This document shows, piece by piece, positions 5,592 to 52,955 of a stretch of DNA of 64,000 bases. A program made the position numbers and the translations under genes. A model generated the notes under the pieces. It searched no databases. It was not told where the DNA came from and saw nothing but the letters and a program-made list of their open reading frames with translations. Each line of letters starts with the position of its first letter. Position 1 is the first letter of the stretch. This DNA comes from a virus, in IMG/VR virus record IMGVR_UViG_2802429014_000001. The stretch is one strand, 5' to 3'.

Positions 5592-6227
5592 CTACTGCAA
5601 TTCGTAGATGACGCCGGATGTCAGGTCGAGATAGGAGTCCCCGACCTGCTGTCCGGTGATGGTTCCCGGCGCACCGTTTCCGGTGGTGATGCGTGCCCCG
5701 CGTGGGCCGGTCGCCCCGGTGGCGCCTGTCTGGCCTGCGGGCCCCTGATTACCGGCTGGACCGGCAGGCCCTTGCGCCCCGGTGGCACCGGTATCGCCCT
5801 TGACACCTTGAATGCCCTGGGGGCCGGTGTCGCCCGTATCACCCTTGTCGCCCTTGGGACCTTGAGTGCCCTGTGCGCCGGTAGGTCCCTGCGGGCCGCG
5901 AATCGATACACCCGCACCATTGGCCGGGAAGGCTGTGCCGTTCCAGATGTACAGCCTGCCGTCTGCTTCAACGAAGTAGCCTTGGCCGTCGTTGTCCGGG
6001 GTGAGGTCGGTGGGCAGAGCCGCGTAGTTGGCGACGGTGCCCGCAATGCTGATACCGCGTCCGTCTTCACCCTGGGGGCCTTGCGAGCCGGTGGGGCCCT
6101 GAGCCCCTTGCGGTCCAGCCGGTCCCTGAACGCCGGTGTCGCCCTTGGGGCCTTGAATACCCTGCGGCCCTTCGGGTCCAACGTCACCCTTAGGACCCTT
6201 GATGCTTCCGCGCTGCTCCCATGCCAT
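5592..6227 (-). CDS. collagen-like (G-X-Y repeat) minor tail/fibre protein
   Basis: GPKGDVGPEGPQGIQGPKGDTGVQGPAGPQGAQGPTGSQGPQGEDG plus a second G-X-Y block. Start placed at MAWEQRG with GGGAGA upstream. Ends in the motif DLTSGVIYELQ. Confidence 0.55.
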   Translation of the reverse strand: MAWEQRGSIKGPKGDVGPEGPQGIQGPKGDTGVQGPAGPQGAQGPTGSQGPQGEDGRGISIAGTVANYAALPTDLTPDNDGQGYFVEADGRLYIWNGTAFPANGAGVSIRGPQGPTGAQGTQGPKGDKGDTGDTGPQGIQGVKGDTGATGAQGPAGPAGNQGPAGQTGATGATGPRGARITTGNGAPGTITGQQVGDSYLDLTSGVIYELQ

Positions 6228-6243
6228 AGTGTTGTCTCCCTTG

Positions 6244-6540
6244 CTATTTGAGTTCGTAGGTGATGCCGGTGCTGACATCGATGTAGAGGTCGCCGGGTTT
6301 GGCGCCAACGATCACGTCCGGTTCGCCTGTGCCGTACCAGGTGGCTACGCCGGAGAAGGCTGGGCCGGGTTCGCCCTGTGCGCCTTGCTCTCCGCGTGGT
6401 CCTGGTGGGCCGGGCACTGGTGTGGCTATCTGCTCGGATGGCTTTGGCGCGGCCAGTGTGAGCTTGGGGCGGCTTGGTGCGGTCAGTTCGATGACCGGCA
6501 CCGGCTCGGTATCGATGACTAGGCGGGGAAGCTCAGTCAT
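6244..6540 (-). CDS. collagen-like minor tail/fibre protein (paralog of 5592..6227)
   Basis: GPPGPRGEQGAQGEPGP repeats. C-terminal YIDVSTGITYELK parallels the C-terminus of the neighbouring gene. Confidence 0.5.
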   Translation of the reverse strand: MTELPRLVIDTEPVPVIELTAPSRPKLTLAAPKPSEQIATPVPGPPGPRGEQGAQGEPGPAFSGVATWYGTGEPDVIVGAKPGDLYIDVSTGITYELK

Positions 6541-6901
6541 CGCGCGCCACCCGGCATTTGGCCCATGGCAGGTTGTCGCCGTTGGGGTAGCTCGACGGGT
6601 AGGTGACGGTCAGCCGCGCCTCGGCTTTGGCTGGAATCTTGTCGGCGATGGGCGACTCAATGCGGATGAATACACCGTCATCGGTGATGGTCGGTTGTAT
6701 TGCTGTGCCGTCTATTTCGGTACCGGCACGCACCGCCGCCATGTCCGGGTAGAACCGCAGATCGATGGTGGTGCCTGCCGGAAAGATGTCATGAATGTTC
6801 GGCGCGGTGCCGTCATCGTCAGCCTTGAGGCGCAGCAGCAAGATGAAGTCCTGCCGGACCGATAGTGTGATATTCAGGTCGGGGTCGTAGCCGCCAATCA
6901 T
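6533..6901 (-). CDS. phage structural hypothetical protein
   Basis: ORF in the tail block that overlaps its neighbours at start/stop. Confidence 0.35.
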   Translation of the reverse strand: MIGGYDPDLNITLSVRQDFILLLRLKADDDGTAPNIHDIFPAGTTIDLRFYPDMAAVRAGTEIDGTAIQPTITDDGVFIRIESPIADKIPAKAEARLTVTYPSSYPNGDNLPWAKCRVARDD

Positions 6902-7188
6902 TGATCTGCCTCTATCTGCGCTATCGCTTCGTCGTGTGTTGTGCCGGGCGCAAACTCGTGCAGCCGTTCAAGACTGGTGGCGCAGGCGTTTTCATCGACC
7001 GCGATAGCCACCGTGGGGCGTGGGGTGTAGGTGTATTCGGCGCCGCGCGTTATCTGGTCGACATGGCGGTCGTGGCGCTCATCGGGTGTGTCGACGTCAA
7101 TGACCACATGCGTGCCATCTGCCAGCCGAAAATGCTTGCAGCCAGCGGGCCAGGCGCTCATATCGGTTTGTAGCTCAACAGCATTCAC
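6898..7188 (-). CDS. hypothetical protein
   Basis: ORF in the tail block; no motif recognised. Confidence 0.3.
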   Translation of the reverse strand: MNAVELQTDMSAWPAGCKHFRLADGTHVVIDVDTPDERHDRHVDQITRGAEYTYTPRPTVAIAVDENACATSLERLHEFAPGTTHDEAIAQIEADQ

Positions 7189-46008: not shown

Positions 46009-46362
46009 TTATGAAGCTGCCAGGCGCCGCTTCCGGCGCTCGGCCCATGCGCGTAGCTCGGTGGCATCCCACCGGAGCCGACTGCCGACCCGAGTAGGCG
46101 CAGGAAGGTCATAGAGTCCGCGACGGCTCCAGTCGCGCAATGTCTGCGGGTGGATGTCCAAGATCGTGGCGGCGACCTTGGACGTGACCAGGACGGGCGT
46201 TTGCGCCTCGCGCTGGATGCGGAGCAGGGCGCGGAGCGTTTCGTGGGCGGAGAGAGGAGTGAGACCGGTGTCGGCGATAGTTGTTGCAATGCGGGCCATT
46301 TCGACCGGCGAGCTATCGGCGGTCATGCCCGCCTGGGCGGCGAGTTCCTGAAGGTTCATCAC
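46009..46362 (-). CDS. excisionase/AlpA-like HTH DNA-binding protein
   Basis: ATILDIHPQTLRDWSRRGLYDLP...RWDATELRAW. Confidence 0.4.
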   Translation of the reverse strand: MMNLQELAAQAGMTADSSPVEMARIATTIADTGLTPLSAHETLRALLRIQREAQTPVLVTSKVAATILDIHPQTLRDWSRRGLYDLPAPTRVGSRLRWDATELRAWAERRKRRLAAS

Positions 46363-46643
46363 GCGATGCCCCGTACGCTGGCCAGTCGGGGGCGATAAGT
46401 CGTCGTGATGGTGCCAGGCTCCAGGCCGTAGGCGACCTCAATGCCTGCAAGCAACTCCTTGGATGCGCCCCTGAGCCCGCCCTCAATCGCCGAGAGGGCA
46501 CCGACCGTGTAGCGAATGCCGGTCGCGTCTTCTATTAGATCCGCAAGGCCAGTCAGGGTAAGCCCGGCTAGGTGGCGGAGGGCGCGAATGGGAACGTGGG
46601 GCGGCGTGAGCTGCGCCCGCTGGTGGGTCGGTCTCGGTGGCAT
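46359..46643 (-). CDS. Cro-like HTH regulator (early-side partner of the divergent switch)
   Basis: IRALRHLAGLTLTGLADLI reads as an HTH. Divergent from the 46799 gene. Confidence 0.45.
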   Translation of the reverse strand: MPPRPTHQRAQLTPPHVPIRALRHLAGLTLTGLADLIEDATGIRYTVGALSAIEGGLRGASKELLAGIEVAYGLEPGTITTTYRPRLASVRGIA

Positions 46644-46784
46644 GTCGATAACAGTACGGCTTAATTACGGCATGGTCAAGGCGTGATTAAGGAAAAGATT
46701 CGGCAATGCCTCGATTGGCTTTGACCTGCGCAAATTCCTCCCCGCAGTCATGAAGAGTTGTTATTGAGTTTGCCCAAAGTCTTT

Positions 46785-46798
46785 GCCATAGTTATGGC
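46785..46798. promoter_or_regulatory. 14-bp perfect palindrome GCCATAGTTATGGC (candidate operator)
   Basis: Lies immediately 5' of the start codon at 46799 in the divergent intergenic region. Confidence 0.4.
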
Positions 46799-47713
46799 AT
46801 GAGCGCTAACGCCGATACCGATGCCCTCGCCTCGGCGGTTCGGGCGCGTCGGGCTGGCCTGGGACTAACGCACGATGAAGTGCTTGCGCGCGGAGGCCCC
46901 TCCGGCGTGACGCTTACGAAGATTGAGATGGCGAGGGGGCCCGCACCAAGTGCGGCCACTTTGAAGAAGCTTGACTTGGCGCTCGATTGGGCGCAGGGCA
47001 GCGCTTTGGGTGTACTCAACGGCGGGGAACCCGTTCCGCTGGAGCATTCCGGTCCGCATGATGTCGCGGCTCCCTCGGCTGGCGAGCCCGGTTCAGGCGC
47101 TGAGCATTTGACTGCTATGAGTTCAGTTCTTGCGCAAATGGTCGCTGTGACGGCCGATCTGCTAACCGGCGCGAGCTTGCCGCCAAAGGTGCGCGCGCAG
47201 GTTGAGCGGGCTATCGCCGACTTCGATAAGGCGAACGAACTCCTTGGTCCAATGACGCATGTCCCCGAGGTTGCAGTCGCGTACATGAAAGAGGCCGACA
47301 AATTCGCACAGGTCGCAACCGAAGTGATCCGGTCAAGCTTCCCGCCCAATGTCACCAACCTTGCCGACCGCAGGCCGGTGCCACCGCCGCCAGACATTGA
47401 CGACCTCGATGTCGCCGCGTCCCGGCGCGAAAAGCTATCCGATGGCGAACGCGACGACGAGGACGGGCCGCATGAGTTGTCGCTGTCCGACAAAAAGTCT
47501 CGTCGCAAGATCAAGTACGAGTTCAACTCCAGTGCAGAGGCATACGAGTATGCCCGTGAGTTCCTGATCGCAGTAGGTGAAAAGCCGCACCTGGTTGACG
47601 CTGCCCTCGGCGATGCGGGCCGACACATTGCAGACACCAGCGCAAGGGGGTGGGCCGTCCGCATTCGAAAGGTCTCGGGCAGAGCCGCAGCTAGCCATGA
47701 CGACGACAAGTAG
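46799..47713 (+). CDS. XRE-family HTH repressor (cI position) with a long C-terminal domain
   Basis: The N-terminal region LRRARRAGLGLTHDEVLARGGPSGVTLTKIEMARG is HTH_3-like. 304 aa. Transcribed toward the integrase. Confidence 0.55.
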   Translation: MSANADTDALASAVRARRAGLGLTHDEVLARGGPSGVTLTKIEMARGPAPSAATLKKLDLALDWAQGSALGVLNGGEPVPLEHSGPHDVAAPSAGEPGSGAEHLTAMSSVLAQMVAVTADLLTGASLPPKVRAQVERAIADFDKANELLGPMTHVPEVAVAYMKEADKFAQVATEVIRSSFPPNVTNLADRRPVPPPPDIDDLDVAASRREKLSDGERDDEDGPHELSLSDKKSRRKIKYEFNSSAEAYEYAREFLIAVGEKPHLVDAALGDAGRHIADTSARGWAVRIRKVSGRAAASHDDDK

Positions 47714-47768
47714 ACGGACGACGTGACCAACTTTGGCGAAATAGTGCCGCCACTGACGCAAGTGGTGT

Positions 47769-48251
47769 GTGGTGGCCAATCCCAAGGGTAGGAAGCGTAG
47801 GCCAAGGCGCAGAGTGATTGCGGCCCAATATCTTCCAATCGGTAGAGAGCCCTACAACCCCTGCGAACTGCCCGAAGACCAGGTGCTAAAAGACAAGATA
47901 GTGAGCGTTCTCGGCGTCCCCATTGATGGGTACATGTTCGAACTCGTGTATAGGTACACCCTGTTTCAGGGCCTCTGCGTGGATTGGGCGATCATGATCT
48001 ATGCACTGAAAACGGCAGACGGATTAGACGCCGAACGCCTGCGGGTCGAGCGAATCGACATCTGCCACTCGGAGGTTCACAAGCACACATTCGGTCGGAG
48101 CAGCCCAGCCGATGATGACCTTGGCCACCGCACAGTGATCCAGTCGTTATCCGCAGGTGACGAGGCTATAGTGGATCGCGAGTACGATAAACAGCTGGCG
48201 CTAGTGAGCCGCGAATGGCAGTTGCGAGCAAGGAGGTGGCTCGATGGTTGA
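47769..48251 (+). CDS. hypothetical protein with Arg-rich N-terminus
   Basis: KGRKRRPRRR at the N-terminus. No recognised domain. Overlaps the next ORF. Confidence 0.35.
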   Translation: MVANPKGRKRRPRRRVIAAQYLPIGREPYNPCELPEDQVLKDKIVSVLGVPIDGYMFELVYRYTLFQGLCVDWAIMIYALKTADGLDAERLRVERIDICHSEVHKHTFGRSSPADDDLGHRTVIQSLSAGDEAIVDREYDKQLALVSREWQLRARRWLDG

Positions 48252-48651
48252 CGCGCACACCGTCGCGACGTTCGCTTTCGCCCAGCTGCGCCGCGACCCT
48301 GATTTCGCTAAACGGTTCCCTTGGCTGCGGAACACTGTGGTTTGCATCGAATCGGATCGGGTCTCGGTGGTTATGGACGGCCTGATGAGCCACCATTTTC
48401 CAGAGGGTGGCACAGTCGCCTGCTACTACCCACAGGGTCACCGCTTCATGTTCATTAAGTCCCTGCCCGCGCGGCAATCGATCGAACCGGGCACAGTGCC
48501 AGTTGTCGCCAATGATCCAAAGGGCGAACTCACCATGGGCATGATCATTGATGCCATGTACTCCAAGCACGTCGATTGGGACACCGAGGCCCTGCAAATT
48601 GGGGAGGCTTCGACCCTTGAGGTTGAAAAAAGACTCTCCCTCGCCAAATAA
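48244..48651 (+). CDS. hypothetical protein
   Basis: Translationally coupled to 47769..48251. Confidence 0.35.
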   Translation: MVDAHTVATFAFAQLRRDPDFAKRFPWLRNTVVCIESDRVSVVMDGLMSHHFPEGGTVACYYPQGHRFMFIKSLPARQSIEPGTVPVVANDPKGELTMGMIIDAMYSKHVDWDTEALQIGEASTLEVEKRLSLAK

Positions 48652-48712
48652 CAGGCATGTATTTCCTGGTCAGAAGTCCTTTTGTCGGTGGCCTGTTCTA
48701 GCGTCTCGGTCC

Positions 48713-49141
48713 ATGAAGACGCATCACTGGCATCCATGGCGAACGCTCGCCGAGCACTATCCACACATCGCTGTGTCCTGCGATCACGTCCTGCCCCGGG
48801 GAGTGGCCGGACTGATCAAGGGAAACACCATCTGGCTGTGCAAGAGCCTGACGCAGGCTGAGCGCCGGTCGACCTTGACGCATGAGTTGATCCACGTTGA
48901 CCGAGGCATCGCGCCCGTCATCCACCGCGCCCGCGAAGAGCACTATGTGGACGTGCTGGCGGCACGCCGACTCATCCCACTGCCTGCCCTGCTGCGTGGG
49001 CTGCAATGGACCAACGATGATTACGAACTGGCCGAAGAGCTTTGGACCGACGTTCACACCGTGCGGGTACGACGCCAGACCCTAACCACTGCCGAGCGGG
49101 ACTGGCTCGCTGACCGTGTTGAAGACCCGCAACGCCCATGA
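48713..49141 (+). CDS. ImmA/IrrE-family zinc metallopeptidase
   Basis: Start placed at MKTHHW. HEXXH is HELIH (TLTHELIHVDRG). ~140 aa, typical size. Confidence 0.55.
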   Translation: MKTHHWHPWRTLAEHYPHIAVSCDHVLPRGVAGLIKGNTIWLCKSLTQAERRSTLTHELIHVDRGIAPVIHRAREEHYVDVLAARRLIPLPALLRGLQWTNDDYELAEELWTDVHTVRVRRQTLTTAERDWLADRVEDPQRP

Positions 49142-49335
49142 ACACTGTTGAAGCCCTTGATATGGAACGCATTTGGTGGCCTGCATCCGGCGCCAAGGAT
49201 GAAGCAGTACGCGAGCGATTCGGCCTATCGCCGGTCCGCTATTACCAGAAGTTGAACGCCATTATCGAGACGCCAGAGGCGCTGGCCATCGACGCACAGA
49301 CCGTCAACCGACTGCGACGGATAAGGGGGAGGTAG
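49138..49335 (+). CDS. small conserved actinobacterial protein (DUF3263-like, unverified)
   Basis: 65 aa (ERIWWPASGAKDEAVRERFGLSPVRYYQKLN). ATGA overlap with its neighbours. Confidence 0.3.
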   Translation: MNTVEALDMERIWWPASGAKDEAVRERFGLSPVRYYQKLNAIIETPEALAIDAQTVNRLRRIRGR

Positions 49336-49845
49336 ATGGAACTGGCAGGATTCTTGATACAGGTGTTTGGCGCCCTATTTACGGCGGTTGGACTTCTCAT
49401 CGCCTGGGAACGGGTATCGAATCGGTCGACGCAGTGGCGCAAGGGGATTGGCGATTTCATTAACGGGCTACTTATGCGATCCAAGAAGGGCAGTGGTGAC
49501 ATCGTGATTACCCCACAAGGGGCGGTCATAACCGCCGTGGGGGGCACACCAGAGGTGATAGTGGAGCCCGACAGTCCGGAAAGGCGGCTCAGGCAACTTG
49601 AGGATGAGTCGAAGAGCCTGCAAAAGCGGGTCAGGAAGACCGAGAAAGCCGTCAAGCGTATCGATCAGGCGGTCGATGAAGTCGACAGCACTATCAATGC
49701 TGCGCTAGCCAAACTGGTCAACGACGACAACTTAATCAAGGTGAGTGATATCCGTTTGGCGCTAATAGGTCTCGGAATCTCATTTGTAGGGTTTGTCATT
49801 GAACACGGACCCTTGCTGCAACGAGTCTTCTGCGCGGCCCAGTAA
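49336..49845 (+). CDS. membrane protein (TM, coiled coil, TM) immediately upstream of the integrase
   Basis: N-terminal TM LIQVFGALFTAVGLLIA, a central charged coiled coil, and C-terminal TM LALIGLGISFVGFVI. Confidence 0.45.
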   Translation: MELAGFLIQVFGALFTAVGLLIAWERVSNRSTQWRKGIGDFINGLLMRSKKGSGDIVITPQGAVITAVGGTPEVIVEPDSPERRLRQLEDESKSLQKRVRKTEKAVKRIDQAVDEVDSTINAALAKLVNDDNLIKVSDIRLALIGLGISFVGFVIEHGPLLQRVFCAAQ

Positions 49846-49850
49846 GGGAT

Positions 49851-51179
49851 ATGACCATGCGAGGTAGACCGCCGCGACCTATCGGGGTGACCGGCAATGT
49901 AATCCTGACCGAGCTACGCCCCGGCACGTGGCAGGCCATCGTACGTGTGCGTGATGCCAGTGGTAAGTCACGAAAGGTGCTGAGGGTCAGTCCACCGCGC
50001 ACCGACTCTCGCGGGCGCCCTGTGCCAGACAGGGACGGCGTGCGCGCACGCGACGCGGTGCTGGCAGCCGCCTCCGAGCTTTCGGTATCGGTGCTCGATG
50101 CGGAGCTGTCGACAGAGACCACCATCCGAGCGCTGTATTACGAGCACTACCGGCCGTACCTTGTAGATCAGGGGAGGGCGCCCGCCACCCTTGACCGATA
50201 TGACTTTGAGGCCAAGGGATTTGACTCCGCATTCGGCCATAGGCGTCTCATGGAGGCGCCAACTCCGGTGATGGAGAAGTTCCTGACAACGGTCGCTGAC
50301 ACGCGTGGTGCCGGGGCGGCGAAGTCGTCGCGAACAGTGCTGTCCGGGATGTACAACTACGCGATCCGCATGAGCAATGGCGCGATCACGGTCAACCCTC
50401 TGCGCGAAGTGAAGCTGGCGCGACGCAAGGGCGCCAAGCGTGGCGGTGCCAGCCAGCTCACCGTTGACGAGGTGCGCGACATCCTCATCGCGGTACGGAC
50501 TTCGGACCTGCCATGCCCCCGAATTCTGGCCAAGGCGGAGCGCGAGAGGAGCGTCGGAAGCTACACGCCACCAACGGTTGCCGAGTTCTGCGCGGACGCC
50601 GATATTGTCGACTGGATTGTGATGCTGATTGCCACTAGCCACCGCCGCAGCCAATCGCTTGCAACGACCTGGCCCGAGCTGGACCTGAAAGCCGGTGTCA
50701 TGCGTCCCACCCGGAAGCTGATCCGCGTCAAAGGCAAAGGCTTGGTGCTGGTGCCCATTGAGGACGACACCAAGGGCTCTGACAATGAGATTGCGTTGCC
50801 CCAGTTCGCCATCGATGCTCTCAAGCTTCGGAAGCGGCGACTTGCCGAGCGCCGACTAGTTGACCCGCGTCCGGTATCGGCCGACTACGAAGACTTGGTG
50901 TTCCCGTCCGAGAACTGGACGCCCCGAGACCCGAACAACGTCGCGGCGCAGTGGCGTCGCGTGCGGTCGGCGCTGGGGCTGCCCGCCAGCATCACGGCCC
51001 ACAGCTTCCGCAAGGCCGTGGCCACCATTCTCGATGACGCCGGACTGTCTGCCCGCGTTGCTGCTGACGTGCTTGGGCATGCCGATCCGTCCATGACTCA
51101 GCGCTTCTACATGGCGCGCGGACGGGCGCACAGCGAAGCCGCGACTGCGCTGCACCAGGCCATCGCGGGCGAGTCCTGA
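49851..51179 (+). CDS. int: tyrosine integrase
   Basis: C-terminal AHSFRKAVATILDDAGL...LGHADPSMTQRFYMARG matches the R..HxxR..Y catalytic pattern. 442 aa. Confidence 0.8.
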   Translation: MTMRGRPPRPIGVTGNVILTELRPGTWQAIVRVRDASGKSRKVLRVSPPRTDSRGRPVPDRDGVRARDAVLAAASELSVSVLDAELSTETTIRALYYEHYRPYLVDQGRAPATLDRYDFEAKGFDSAFGHRRLMEAPTPVMEKFLTTVADTRGAGAAKSSRTVLSGMYNYAIRMSNGAITVNPLREVKLARRKGAKRGGASQLTVDEVRDILIAVRTSDLPCPRILAKAERERSVGSYTPPTVAEFCADADIVDWIVMLIATSHRRSQSLATTWPELDLKAGVMRPTRKLIRVKGKGLVLVPIEDDTKGSDNEIALPQFAIDALKLRKRRLAERRLVDPRPVSADYEDLVFPSENWTPRDPNNVAAQWRRVRSALGLPASITAHSFRKAVATILDDAGLSARVAADVLGHADPSMTQRFYMARGRAHSEAATALHQAIAGES

Positions 51180-51361: not shown

Positions 51362-51400
51362 CGATTGTGGGGGTCAGGGGTTCGAGTCCCCTTAGCTCCA
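51362..51400 (+). other. tRNA/tmRNA 3'-end fragment (T-arm plus acceptor 3' strand), i.e. the att core
   Basis: aGGGG-TTCGAGT-CCCCt T-arm followed by TAGCTCC and A. The complementary 5' acceptor strand GGAGCTA is absent upstream, so this is not a complete tRNA. Confidence 0.5.
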
Positions 51401-51441
51401 CTTGACATACCACCCGTTCAGCGGGGGTTTTTCTTTAAATC

Positions 51442-51492: not shown

Positions 51493-52610
51493 ATGGCCAG
51501 CATCCGCAAGCGTGCGCTCAAGGACGGCACCGAGTATTGGTCGGTGCTGTACCGGCGCAATGGCAAACAGACCAGTACCTCATTCGGTGACCCCGACACC
51601 GCCGTGAAGTTCACCAAGCTCGCCGAGACGGTAGGCATTGAGGCAGCGCTGAGAACCGTGGCTGCAGACGGTGGTTCGTCTAGCGCGATGACCGTCCAGG
51701 AATGGCTGACGCATCACATTGACTTGCTCACGGGGACCGACCAAAACACAGTCACGAAATACCACTCGTACCTGCGCAACGACATCGCCAAGCCGCTGGG
51801 TGCTATCCCGTTGTCGGCACTAGAGCGTGATGACGTTGCGCGGTGGGTGCAGACTATGAAGGCGACGACGACCCGGCGCGGCACTCCACCGAGCGCCAAG
51901 ACGATTCGCAACAAGCTCATGTTCCTCTCCGGTGCTCTCAACGATGCGGTGGCTACAGGACGGCTGGTGGCCAATCCCACCAGCGGCATCAGCCTGCCCC
52001 GTGACGACGACCCACACGAGCCGAGGTTCCTTTCCCGTCCTGAGAGTTCGACACCCTCTATGACACGACCACCGAGCCATGGCGGCCGCTCGTGCGCTTC
52101 CTGGTGGTCAGTGGCTGCCGGTTCAACGAGGCGACGGCGTTGACTCCTGCTGACATCAACACCGATGAGGGCACTGTCCGCATTCGTCAGAGCTGGAAGC
52201 ACGGCACAGGCGGGTACAGGCTGGGCGCCACCAAGAGGGACGGCAGCCGACGCACGATCAACGTCCCGGCTTCGATGCTTGACCTACTGGATCTGTCCGG
52301 GGAATTCGTCTTCCTCAACCGCGACAATGGCCCCGTGCGCATCCATGGCTTCATCCGCCGCGTCTGGGAGCCTGCCGTCCTGCGCTCGGAGCTGGGGCCA
52401 AGGCCTACACCGCACGATCTGCGGCACACGTGCGCATCATGGATGATTGTAGCCGGTGTGCCGTTGCCAGTTATCCAGAAACATCTGGGACACAGCGACA
52501 TCAGGACCACCATCAACACTTATGGTCACCTCGACCGCTCCTCCATGCGGGCTGCCGCAGATGCTCTCGAAAAATGTTGGCTTAGTTTTGGCCTTACCCC
52601 AAACCTATAG
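51493..52610 (+). pseudogene. second tyrosine integrase, disrupted by a +2 frameshift (GAG to GAGAG) at about 52042-52046
   Basis: The N-terminal ORF (to 52143) and the catalytic ORF (from 52092; HDLRHTCASW...GHSDIRTTINTY) are in different frames. Removing AG from cctgagAGttcgac joins DDDPHEPRFLSRPE to FDTLYDTTTEPWRPLVRFLVVSG. Confidence 0.55.
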
Positions 52611-52715: not shown

Positions 52716-52955
52716 ATGACCAACTACTCCGACGAGGAAGCCGCTGAGCTTATCGGCTGCTCTGTTCGTTGGTTGGTCGAACAGCTGCGTGCCGGTCGGT
52801 TCCCTGGCTACAAGCCGGGACACAGCTGGCGGATGACTCAGGCAGACGTTGAGGCCGCTATCGAGACCCTGCGCCCCACCAAGAGGGAGTTGGACGCTCC
52901 GCTGGCGCTTGGCTTGACCACGACCTCACGCCGTCGCTTGACGCTTGCCGAGTAG
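52716..52955 (+). CDS. excisionase/MerR-like HTH protein
   Basis: AAELIGCSVRWLVEQLRAGRFPGYKPGHSWRMTQADVEAAIE. Confidence 0.5.
   Translation: MTNYSDEEAAELIGCSVRWLVEQLRAGRFPGYKPGHSWRMTQADVEAAIETLRPTKRELDAPLALGLTTTSRRRLTLAE

Follow-up and report, generated by a model that had tools for sequence, protein, structure and literature searches.

What inactivates the repressor of a prophage when that repressor carries no self-cleaving domain, and what is the role of the genes that separate it from the integrase? These questions are raised by one end of the prophage in the virus record IMGVR_UViG_2802429014_000001, of which a stretch of 64,000 nucleotides (nt), here called the window, was analysed; all coordinates refer to the whole window. 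An earlier reading of its letters (the original prediction) had described an XRE-type repressor paired with an ImmA/IrrE-type peptidase, two open reading frames (ORFs) between them (here X and Y), and a DUF3263-like protein and a membrane protein ahead of the integrase, and all the ORFs that it named were present at the coordinates given. The nearest DNA was that of the M. abscessus cluster MabD prophages prophiGD12-2, prophiGD05-1 and phiGD17-1. On balance we think it probable that the segment represents the lysogeny module at the integrase end of a cluster-MabD-like Mycobacteroides (M. abscessus-type) prophage, in which the peptidase would drive inactivation of the repressor, the DUF3263 protein would supply the input, and X, Y and the membrane protein would be cargo. 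As a regulatory module it is unexceptional and of a kind already known, and it offers two leads: the trio of protease, DUF3263 protein and repressor tail, and the X-Y family.

A minimal M78 peptidase coupled to a DUF3263 protein

The protein of 142 amino acids (aa) encoded at 48713..49141 on the + strand carries the motif HELIH at aa 57-61 (48881-48895). It matched PHROG 87 'metallo-protease' with an E-value of 8e-19 and had 148 homologues, some of them titled 'ImmA/IrrE family metallo-endopeptidase'; 33 of 44 diverse homologues matched the Pfam M78 model (PF06114) at E ≤ 0.01, the best at 4.5e-10, while the window protein itself scored below threshold on that model. Across the 44 homologues Q48, R51, R52, H57, E58 and H61 were invariant and E76, the candidate third zinc ligand, was conserved in about 90%, and the conserved columns lacked the cysteine of a cysteine switch. 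The resulting spacing, H-x3-H-x14-E, is shorter than that of CapP (H97, H101, E128). The structural model, with a predicted local distance difference test (pLDDT) score of 95, comprised a peptidase domain and a helix-turn-helix (HTH)-like helical domain of the M78 type; the fold search agreed with M78 and gave CapP as the best structural match. The protein ends after the HTH-like part and is without the GAF domain, which in CapP spans residues 182-288. Family and predicted fold together support its assignment, already made in the original prediction, as a putative minimal zinc metallopeptidase of the ImmA/IrrE/CapP-like M78 type.

The XRE repressor gene lies 1 kb upstream of the peptidase gene on the same strand, and directly adjoins it in prophiGD05-1 and in many genome loci. 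Homologues of the peptidase were present in 252 actinobacteriophage records (207 from Gordonia and 38 from Mycobacterium phages), including Che9c, Sbash and CarolAnn, under annotations that vary between metallo-protease, peptidase, IrrE-like protein and HTH protein, and in the paper on Sbash gene 42 is termed 'IrrE-like' and is placed, together with the repressor and integrase genes, in the set 40-43 that is expressed during lysogeny. The ImmR/ImmA-like pairing, noted originally in a prophage of a mycolata host, is thus already known in actinobacteriophage annotation and is not new.

What had been missed, besides the absence of the GAF sensor domain from the peptidase, is that the protease gene and the DUF3263 gene form a conserved coupled pair. 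The 65-aa product of the latter (49138..49335, + strand), correctly recognized as DUF3263-like, matched Pfam DUF3263 (PF11662) at 2.9e-24 with 85.1 bits against a cut-off of 22.3, and the NCBIfam NapA model at 9e-22 with 77 bits, which is below the equivalog cut-off of 160. NapA (Rv0430), a mycobacterial nucleoid-associated protein whose DNA binding favours AT-rich stretches, belongs to the same Pfam family. It is longer than the phage protein, which differs also in that its gene is coupled to that of a protease, the two genes overlapping by 4 nt (ATGA) in an arrangement indicative of translational coupling. In a locus survey that scanned one genome per species and yielded 60 genome loci from many actinobacterial genera (67 loci overall), a DUF3263 gene stood directly 3' of the protease gene in 34 of the 67, and a divergent xre/xre pair lay upstream of the protease gene in most. 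The same synteny, with both the divergent pair and the downstream DUF3263 gene, was seen in the phages Che9c, CarolAnn, Holliday, Frokostdame and Dorito; in Che9c the order is 'metallo-protease', 'DUF3263 domain-containing protein' and integrase, and the DUF3263 gene overlaps the integrase gene. One natural fusion of an N-terminal protease to a C-terminal DUF3263 domain was found (P0018, 201 aa, on a metagenomic contig), although, coming from a single assembly, it is possibly the product of a sequencing frameshift. The DUF3263 family profile also matched chain U of the solved structures PDB 9N2G/9N2N, a 'Fis family transcriptional regulator', with an E-value of 1e-31; the chain letter suggests a large complex, and these entries may therefore show the binding partner of DUF3263. 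A literature search found no publication for either entry and nothing related on DUF3263.

The repressor and its C-terminal peptide

The presumed target, rep304 (304 aa, 46799..47713, + strand), is an XRE-type immunity repressor that matched PHROG 6288 at 9e-22 and Pfam HTH_31 weakly. It consists of an HTH (aa 10-61, 46826-46981) that is 52-55% identical to those of Frokostdame gp44, an annotated repressor, and of Dorito gp39, which occupies the corresponding position and is annotated as an HTH DNA-binding protein only, a Pro-rich linker containing DLDVAASRREKLSDGERDDED (aa ~185-222, 47351-47463), and an extra C-terminal domain of 76 aa (aa 229-304, 47483-47710). No S24 domain was detected with Pfam at E ≤ 0.1 and no relative was found in the PDB, in keeping with the earlier expectation that the protein has none, and S24 autocleavage was dropped as a candidate mechanism.

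The stretch 47351-47463, which encodes …PVPPPPDIDDLDVAASRREKLSDGERDDED, is the sole part of the repressor gene with appreciable nucleotide identity (86-87%) to the repressor genes of prophiGD05-1 and phiGD17-1. In those two prophages its counterpart forms the C-terminus of the repressor; in the window the 76-aa domain follows it. This domain (aa 229-304) matched no family, and elsewhere among phage records it occurred in the prophiGD12-2 repressor only, where it is present twice.

Many of the repressors encoded upstream of the protease were found to share a C-terminal peptide of the form [FYW]-x-L-A-[AN]-R-x-x-G-P … G-E-R-L-R-D-x-Q-D-x-D-A-E that is followed by an acidic stretch, or in short 'LAAR…RLRDAQD' and then acidic residues. 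A strict regular expression, picked after seeing the data, matched 16 of 24 repressors as compared with 1.9±1.3 in shuffled sequences. A hidden Markov model (HMM) trained on eight tails recovered 11 further ORFs among 11,471 six-frame ORFs and matched nowhere else in that set; all 11 lay on the + strand and ended 37-4108 nt upstream of the protease gene, with the motif at their C-terminus. The window's repressor has only a weak version of this motif. CarolAnn offers an instructive comparison, as its genes 46-40 (Cro-like, repressor gp45, gp44/gp43, gp42, gp41, integrase) have the same architecture as the window and gp45 is an experimentally defined repressor. Although gp42 shows 46% identity with the window protease, and gp41 shows 43% with the DUF3263 protein, rep304 and gp45 matched each other with an E-value of only 2.4, their DNA-binding parts being unrelated, and the sole notable local alignment between them was the tail (VAASRREKLSDGER in rep304 versus IAARRGDDQTKGER in gp45). 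These sequence patterns would fit a tail peptide that accompanies the protease from locus to locus and serves for its recognition of, or cutting at, the repressor.

A proposed protease-driven switch and its alternatives

The behaviour of the family, the synteny and the conserved repressor tail lead us to infer that the repressor would be inactivated by proteolysis. The Cro-like gene and the XRE immunity repressor gene would be transcribed divergently from a 155-bp control region, and the peptidase would act as an antirepressor, cleaving the repressor upon an inducing signal. The cut may fall in the flexible Pro-rich/acidic region that follows the HTH and the oligomerization part, at or near 'VAAS-RREK…GER-acidic'. 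This would parallel the ImmA/ImmR, IrrE/DdrO and CapP/CapH pairs, in which the repressor is cut within its C-terminal portion, often with Arg at P1': between L106 and R107 in DdrO (23 aa from the C-terminus), between F95 and M96 in ImmR (as given in the DdrO paper), and between F82 and R83 in CapH. Protease activity has been shown for ImmA and IrrE, and CapP cleaves CapH upon activation by single-stranded DNA (ssDNA).

A parallel in layout is ICEBs1 of Bacillus subtilis, in which ImmA cleaves ImmR to induce the element, and in which an XRE repressor and a short, GAF-less M78 peptidase with a HEXXH motif are likewise encoded in one operon beside the integrase. It differs from the window by a very low sequence similarity, by being without a DUF3263 partner, and by having no cargo genes between repressor and peptidase, and cleavage in the window would be by analogy. 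IrrE(PprI)/DdrO of Deinococcus and the CBASS-associated CapP/CapH differ in that their peptidases end in a GAF domain, which together with the peptidase domain encloses the groove where ssDNA is bound. Because the window peptidase is without the GAF domain that contributes to this ssDNA-sensing groove in IrrE and CapP, the DUF3263 protein would be the leading candidate for the role of signal input or of control.

Several observations weigh against this account. The peptidase scored 13.9 bits on Pfam M78, under the cut-off of 22, and the literature yielded no report of cleavage in any actinobacteriophage, nor any functional study of these proteins. With the tail HMM, neither the window's repressor nor those of its MabD relatives scored significantly; a protease-less cassette (prophiGD11-3 gp4) likewise ends in 'LDAAQRE…', and the conserved 113-nt repressor segment could be a mere recombination joint. 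The text on RNA-seq of CarolAnn names genes 43-45 as lysogenically expressed, and not genes 41-42. About half of the genome loci gave no DUF3263 match beside the protease with a locally built profile, and the phages Squirty and Dori have no annotated DUF3263 gene there, so that this partner does not seem to be obligatory. As regards the cargo, none of the known defence families was matched by X, Y or the membrane protein, and the split and fused forms of X-Y have no conserved catalytic motif in common.

A bolder joint reading would have actinobacteriophages use an undescribed three-part switch, made up of a sensor-less M78 peptidase, a coupled and occasionally fused DUF3263 protein supplying a DNA-damage or DNA-state signal, and a portable tail of 35-40 aa on otherwise unrelated repressors, with a cut after LAA or VAA exposing an ssrA/LexA-like C-terminal degron for ClpXP, and with X-Y, split or fused, as a new prophage-borne anti-phage family that has no solved fold neighbour. 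We consider it doubtful that all these parts would hold together.

A different possibility is that the protease and the DUF3263 protein are not aimed at their own repressor, and form instead a stress regulator of integrase or excisionase, a CapP-like controller of the cargo, or a weapon against the repressors or other proteins of incoming phages. Such a role would suit the position of the pair next to the integrase gene, with which the DUF3263 gene of Che9c even overlaps, the part played by CapP as a regulator of defence operons, the distance of up to 4 kb between repressor and protease, and the omission of CarolAnn genes 41-42 from the genes named as lysogenically expressed. We regard it as rather unlikely all the same: a same-strand XRE repressor gene lies upstream of the protease gene in most loci, the conserved repressor tail occurs only in ORFs upstream of the protease, and in every XRE/M78 pair studied so far the cognate XRE protein is the target.

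Alternatively, the M78-like protein might be an antirepressor that does not cut, binding repressor monomers and blocking their oligomerization or DNA binding, as proposed for Rir and Crh of the Streptococcus phage TP-J34. The DdrO paper distinguishes these two modes for COG2856/XRE pairs, cleavage and inhibition of oligomerization, and the poor score of the window protein on the Pfam M78 model would agree with the second. According to the same paper, however, Rir retains only part of the extended metallopeptidase signature that surrounds HEXXH, whereas the invariance of H57, E58 and H61 and the conservation of E76 in the homologues of the window peptidase are as expected from selection on catalysis, which makes a non-cutting protein unlikely here.

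X and Y form an autonomous unit

X (160 aa, 47769..48251) and Y (135 aa, 48244..48651) are encoded on the + strand with an 8-nt overlap. The Arg-rich, disordered N-terminus noticed originally in X was confirmed (MVANPKGRKRRPRRR), and the AF2 model of X (pLDDT 84) predicted a beta-sheet and a long C-terminal helix but had no structural neighbour in PDB or BFVD. Neither protein matched Pfam, PHROG, NCBIfam or PADLOC-DB v2, nor did the fused forms described below match PADLOC. An idea that X might be a metal-dependent enzyme was dropped since the motif ERIDICHSEVHxHxF, invariant in the split family, has its Cys and His residues replaced in the fused forms.

When set against prophiGD05-1 and phiGD17-1, the window has an insertion of approximately 1.2 kb (about 47464-48646) that contains X-Y and also brings the extra repressor domain, and X-Y is absent from these two prophages as well as from prophiGD12-2. 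Fifteen homologues of X were found, with distant ones at the same position in Gordonia phages, and Y always had X beside it or joined to it in one protein. In the Gordonia phages Frokostdame, Dorito and their relatives, as in one further locus (L006), X-Y fills the interval from repressor to protease, and in Frokostdame and Dorito the start of X overlaps the stop of the repressor gene. In two places X-Y occurs with no repressor-protease cassette nearby: in L007 it adjoins a DUF4365 gene at a chromosomal site, and in L008 it stands at one end of a phiRv1-like element.

In a search with the Y profile, 49 representative proteins were retrieved, 19 of which also matched the X profile in their N-terminal half; 17 of these 19 are X-Y fusions of 243-283 aa, with 16 matching at E < 0.1 (best 3e-12). 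The fusions occur in other actinobacteria. Longer forms of 511-528 aa, found in M. abscessus and Mycolicibacterium (P0185 and P0195-P0199), carry an extra C-terminal domain of ~270 aa that matched neither Pfam nor PADLOC and could be an effector domain; a stretch of the type R-x6-H (RLSNIDKH) in this domain had suggested HEPN for the 517-aa proteins, which was rejected as it found no support in Pfam or PADLOC. One fused gene lies between a resolvase gene and genes for DUF5131, GmrSD_N and HNH proteins. Scans of viral contigs and a first scan of metagenomes for the context of fused forms were empty and tblastn searches of phages and plasmids told nothing about it, with only two loci (L070 and L071) recovered. 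X-Y is hence an autonomous unit and not, as had been supposed, part of a conserved repressor-peptidase cassette.

As a separate observation, the phiRv1-like element in Mycobacterium sp. 852002-51163 (L008/L009, positions 6001-6922 for X-Y) is small and encodes DUF2742 and DUF3631 proteins, a small terminase, an S78 prohead protease and a capsid protein, and X-Y stands by its end, beside host CYTH/CHAD genes.

X-Y could nonetheless belong to the immunity circuit rather than to the cargo, for instance if the basic N-terminal tail of X (RKRRPRRR) were to bind the acidic tail of the repressor and modulate its cleavage. Its place in L006 and in phages of two genera, where repressor and protease flank it, and the overlap of X with the repressor gene in Frokostdame and Dorito, would agree with this. 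We hold it to be quite unlikely in view of the copies that lie away from any cassette (the end of the phiRv1-like element, the DUF4365 site, and the fused form by resolvase, DUF5131, GmrSD_N and HNH genes), the lack of X-Y in the closest relatives of the prophage, and the unrelated defence genes that fill the same slot in other cassettes. That X-Y is a type II toxin-antitoxin pair, as two small overlapping genes on mobile elements and the GepA-like toxin-antitoxin pair in the neighbouring slot of prophiGD12-2 might suggest, is highly improbable, for no domain known from toxins or antitoxins was recognized in either protein, and at least 16 representative fusions in which both halves were detected, one form having a further domain, would be unusual for a toxin and its neutralizer and argue that X and Y act as one unit.

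The cargo slot and the membrane protein

The proposal that the interval between repressor and integrase is a cargo region was borne out by the genes that relatives carry in it, and the part between repressor and protease is a cargo slot. In CarolAnn, as in the window, two cargo genes lie between repressor and protease; these RexAB-like genes (gp44/gp43), which have no relation to X-Y and encode a membrane protein and a DUF4747 protein, share a transcript with the repressor gene and are necessary and sufficient for defence. A locus of Actinomyces culturomici (L027, 2599-4904) has a complete PD-Lambda-5 system, A and B (E-values of 7e-103 and 4e-108), between an XRE repressor and a protease homologue, from which it follows that the slot collects defence systems outside Mycobacteriales too. 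Two genome loci and phage Dori carry DUF3800/PDC-M04A in this slot and phage Holliday carries PDC-M63A; a SocA/Panacea antitoxin domain and a HIRAN-domain protein were also found in it.

A second variable position follows the DUF3263 gene. In prophiGD12-2 it holds the GepA-like toxin-antitoxin pair, and in the window it encodes a protein of 169 aa (49336..49845, + strand) in which, as originally described, two hydrophobic segments (hydropathy peaks at aa 3-24 and 138-157) enclose a charged stretch with coiled-coil-type matches below cut-off. Its best SLATT-type match was weak (NCBIfam SLATT_fungal, 18.9 bits against a cut-off of 35) and PADLOC-DB v2 returned coiled-coil-type noise only. The protein is not unique to the window, as had been implied, for prophiGD05-1 gp2 and phiGD17-1 gp41 are 28-30% identical to it and make it a fast-diverging positional orthologue.

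We suggest that X-Y and the membrane protein would be lysogenic-conversion cargo, co-transcribed with the repressor and directed to the exclusion of, or the defence against, other phages. The searches of Pfam and of the defence database that had been proposed for the three proteins gave no defence match, and the known defence families were discarded as candidates for them. A defence or exclusion role is nevertheless plausible because the same slot in relatives carries validated or candidate defence genes, and in our judgement the case for and against it is about evenly balanced.

The control region

The Cro-like HTH protein (94 aa, 46359..46643, - strand) is encoded divergently from the repressor. 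Both members of this pair scored below the HTH_31 cut-off of 27 bits (25.1 bits for the Cro-like protein and 19.2 bits for rep304), yet the PHROG match of the Cro-like protein (PHROG 6463, 3e-30) was as clear as that of the repressor, which upheld the divergent HTH pair of the original prediction. The Cro-like protein is 62% identical to Frokostdame gp45 and 52% identical to Dorito gp40.

The 155-bp region between the two genes (46644..46798) contains an inverted repeat, GTTTGCC/GGCAA repeats and a mini-ORF of 10 codons. The 'perfect 14-bp palindrome' reported here proved to be TGCCATA-GT-TATGGCA at 46784-46799, its two 7-bp arms being real but interrupted by a non-palindromic spacer of 2 bp. 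The last base of the inverted repeat is the A of the repressor ATG, and it occurs once in the window with no exact copies in related loci. We take it as suggestive and not compelling because a perfect inverted repeat with 7-bp arms and a spacer of 0-4 nt arose in ~4% of shuffled versions of the intergenic region. Repeats of the GTTTGCC type are present also in the control regions of Frokostdame and Dorito, and the repeats may serve as operators. The stop of the mini-ORF (46770-46802, TTG…TGA, LPKVFAIVMA) and the repressor ATG overlap (ATGA), and Frokostdame gp44 and Dorito gp39, the Gordonia repressors, carry the homologous peptide 'LPKFF' in frame at their N-termini. The mini-ORF may encode a leader peptide, coincide with a conserved DNA element of operator or promoter, or be the sign of a mis-called start.

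The integrase end of the prophage

Identity to prophiGD12-2, prophiGD05-1 and phiGD17-1 was 80-92% at the DNA level over the matched segments (excise, protease-DUF3263 and integrase), and the protease was 96-98% identical in protein to its MabD counterparts. These prophages share with the window the order of repressor, protease, DUF3263 gene, membrane protein or toxin-antitoxin pair, and integrase, but differ in immunity specificity, the Cro-like protein and repressor HTH of the window being nearer to those of Gordonia phages, and prophiGD05-1 and phiGD17-1 are without the 1.2-kb insertion. Similarity to the MabD records ends at 51401, within a sequence resembling the 3' end of a tRNA, which places the locus at the integrase end of the prophage.

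On the + strand seven genes span 46799-51179, separated in order by 55, -8, 61, -4, 0 and 5 nt, and a scan of the window found no terminator-like site ahead of 51413. The placing of these genes in one operon was borne out to the extent that the small gaps and the lack of an early terminator fit such an arrangement, but they do not prove it. The G+C content of 0.57-0.60 at 47001-50000, compared with 0.62-0.66 over most of the prophage to the left, fits horizontally acquired cargo.

On the other side of the Cro-like gene, whose stop overlaps the start of its neighbour, an excisionase-like HTH_17/MerR protein of 117 aa is encoded (46009..46362, - strand; Pfam HTH_17 4e-09, PHROG 66 excisionase), and its gene shares 96% DNA identity with those annotated 'excise' in prophiGD12-2 and prophiGD05-1. 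The tyrosine integrase (442 aa, 49851..51179, + strand) matched PHROG 1 at 9e-34 and the catalytic domain Phage_integrase (PF00589) at 1e-14, with 55 bits against a cut-off of 27.1, and its gene is ~91% identical in DNA to those of prophiGD12-2 and prophiGD05-1; the integrase of CarolAnn, by contrast, is a serine integrase on the opposite strand. The end of the prophage (51381..51435, + strand) is marked by a tRNA-3'-end-like attachment (att) core at 51381-51403 and by a hairpin with a T-run at 51413-51435. No whole tRNA was found within the window, and no repeat of at least 14 nt was shared between the integrase flank and positions 1-46000, so far as a second att copy was sought there; the other end of the prophage probably lies outside the window.

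Beyond this end a second tyrosine integrase gene was observed at 51493-52610, split by a frameshift into an N-terminal part of 216 aa and a catalytic part of 172 aa (PF00589, 1e-23), followed by an HTH_17 excisionase-like ORF (52716-52955). It looks like a second, possibly decayed integrative element that abuts the prophage at the tRNA-derived att site.

Significance

The prophages of M. abscessus influence the choice of therapeutic phages, and their induction is essentially unstudied. The module of repressor, protease and DUF3263 protein is present in hundreds of phages of Gordonia, Mycobacterium and Rhodococcus; were it indeed an induction switch, it would explain induction for a large share of the temperate actinobacteriophages, and would offer a handle for obtaining lytic derivatives or stabilized lysogens. 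As the slot between repressor and protease seems to gather defence genes, among them the validated RexAB-like pair and PD-Lambda-5, it can be mined systematically, and X-Y is a concrete candidate from it.

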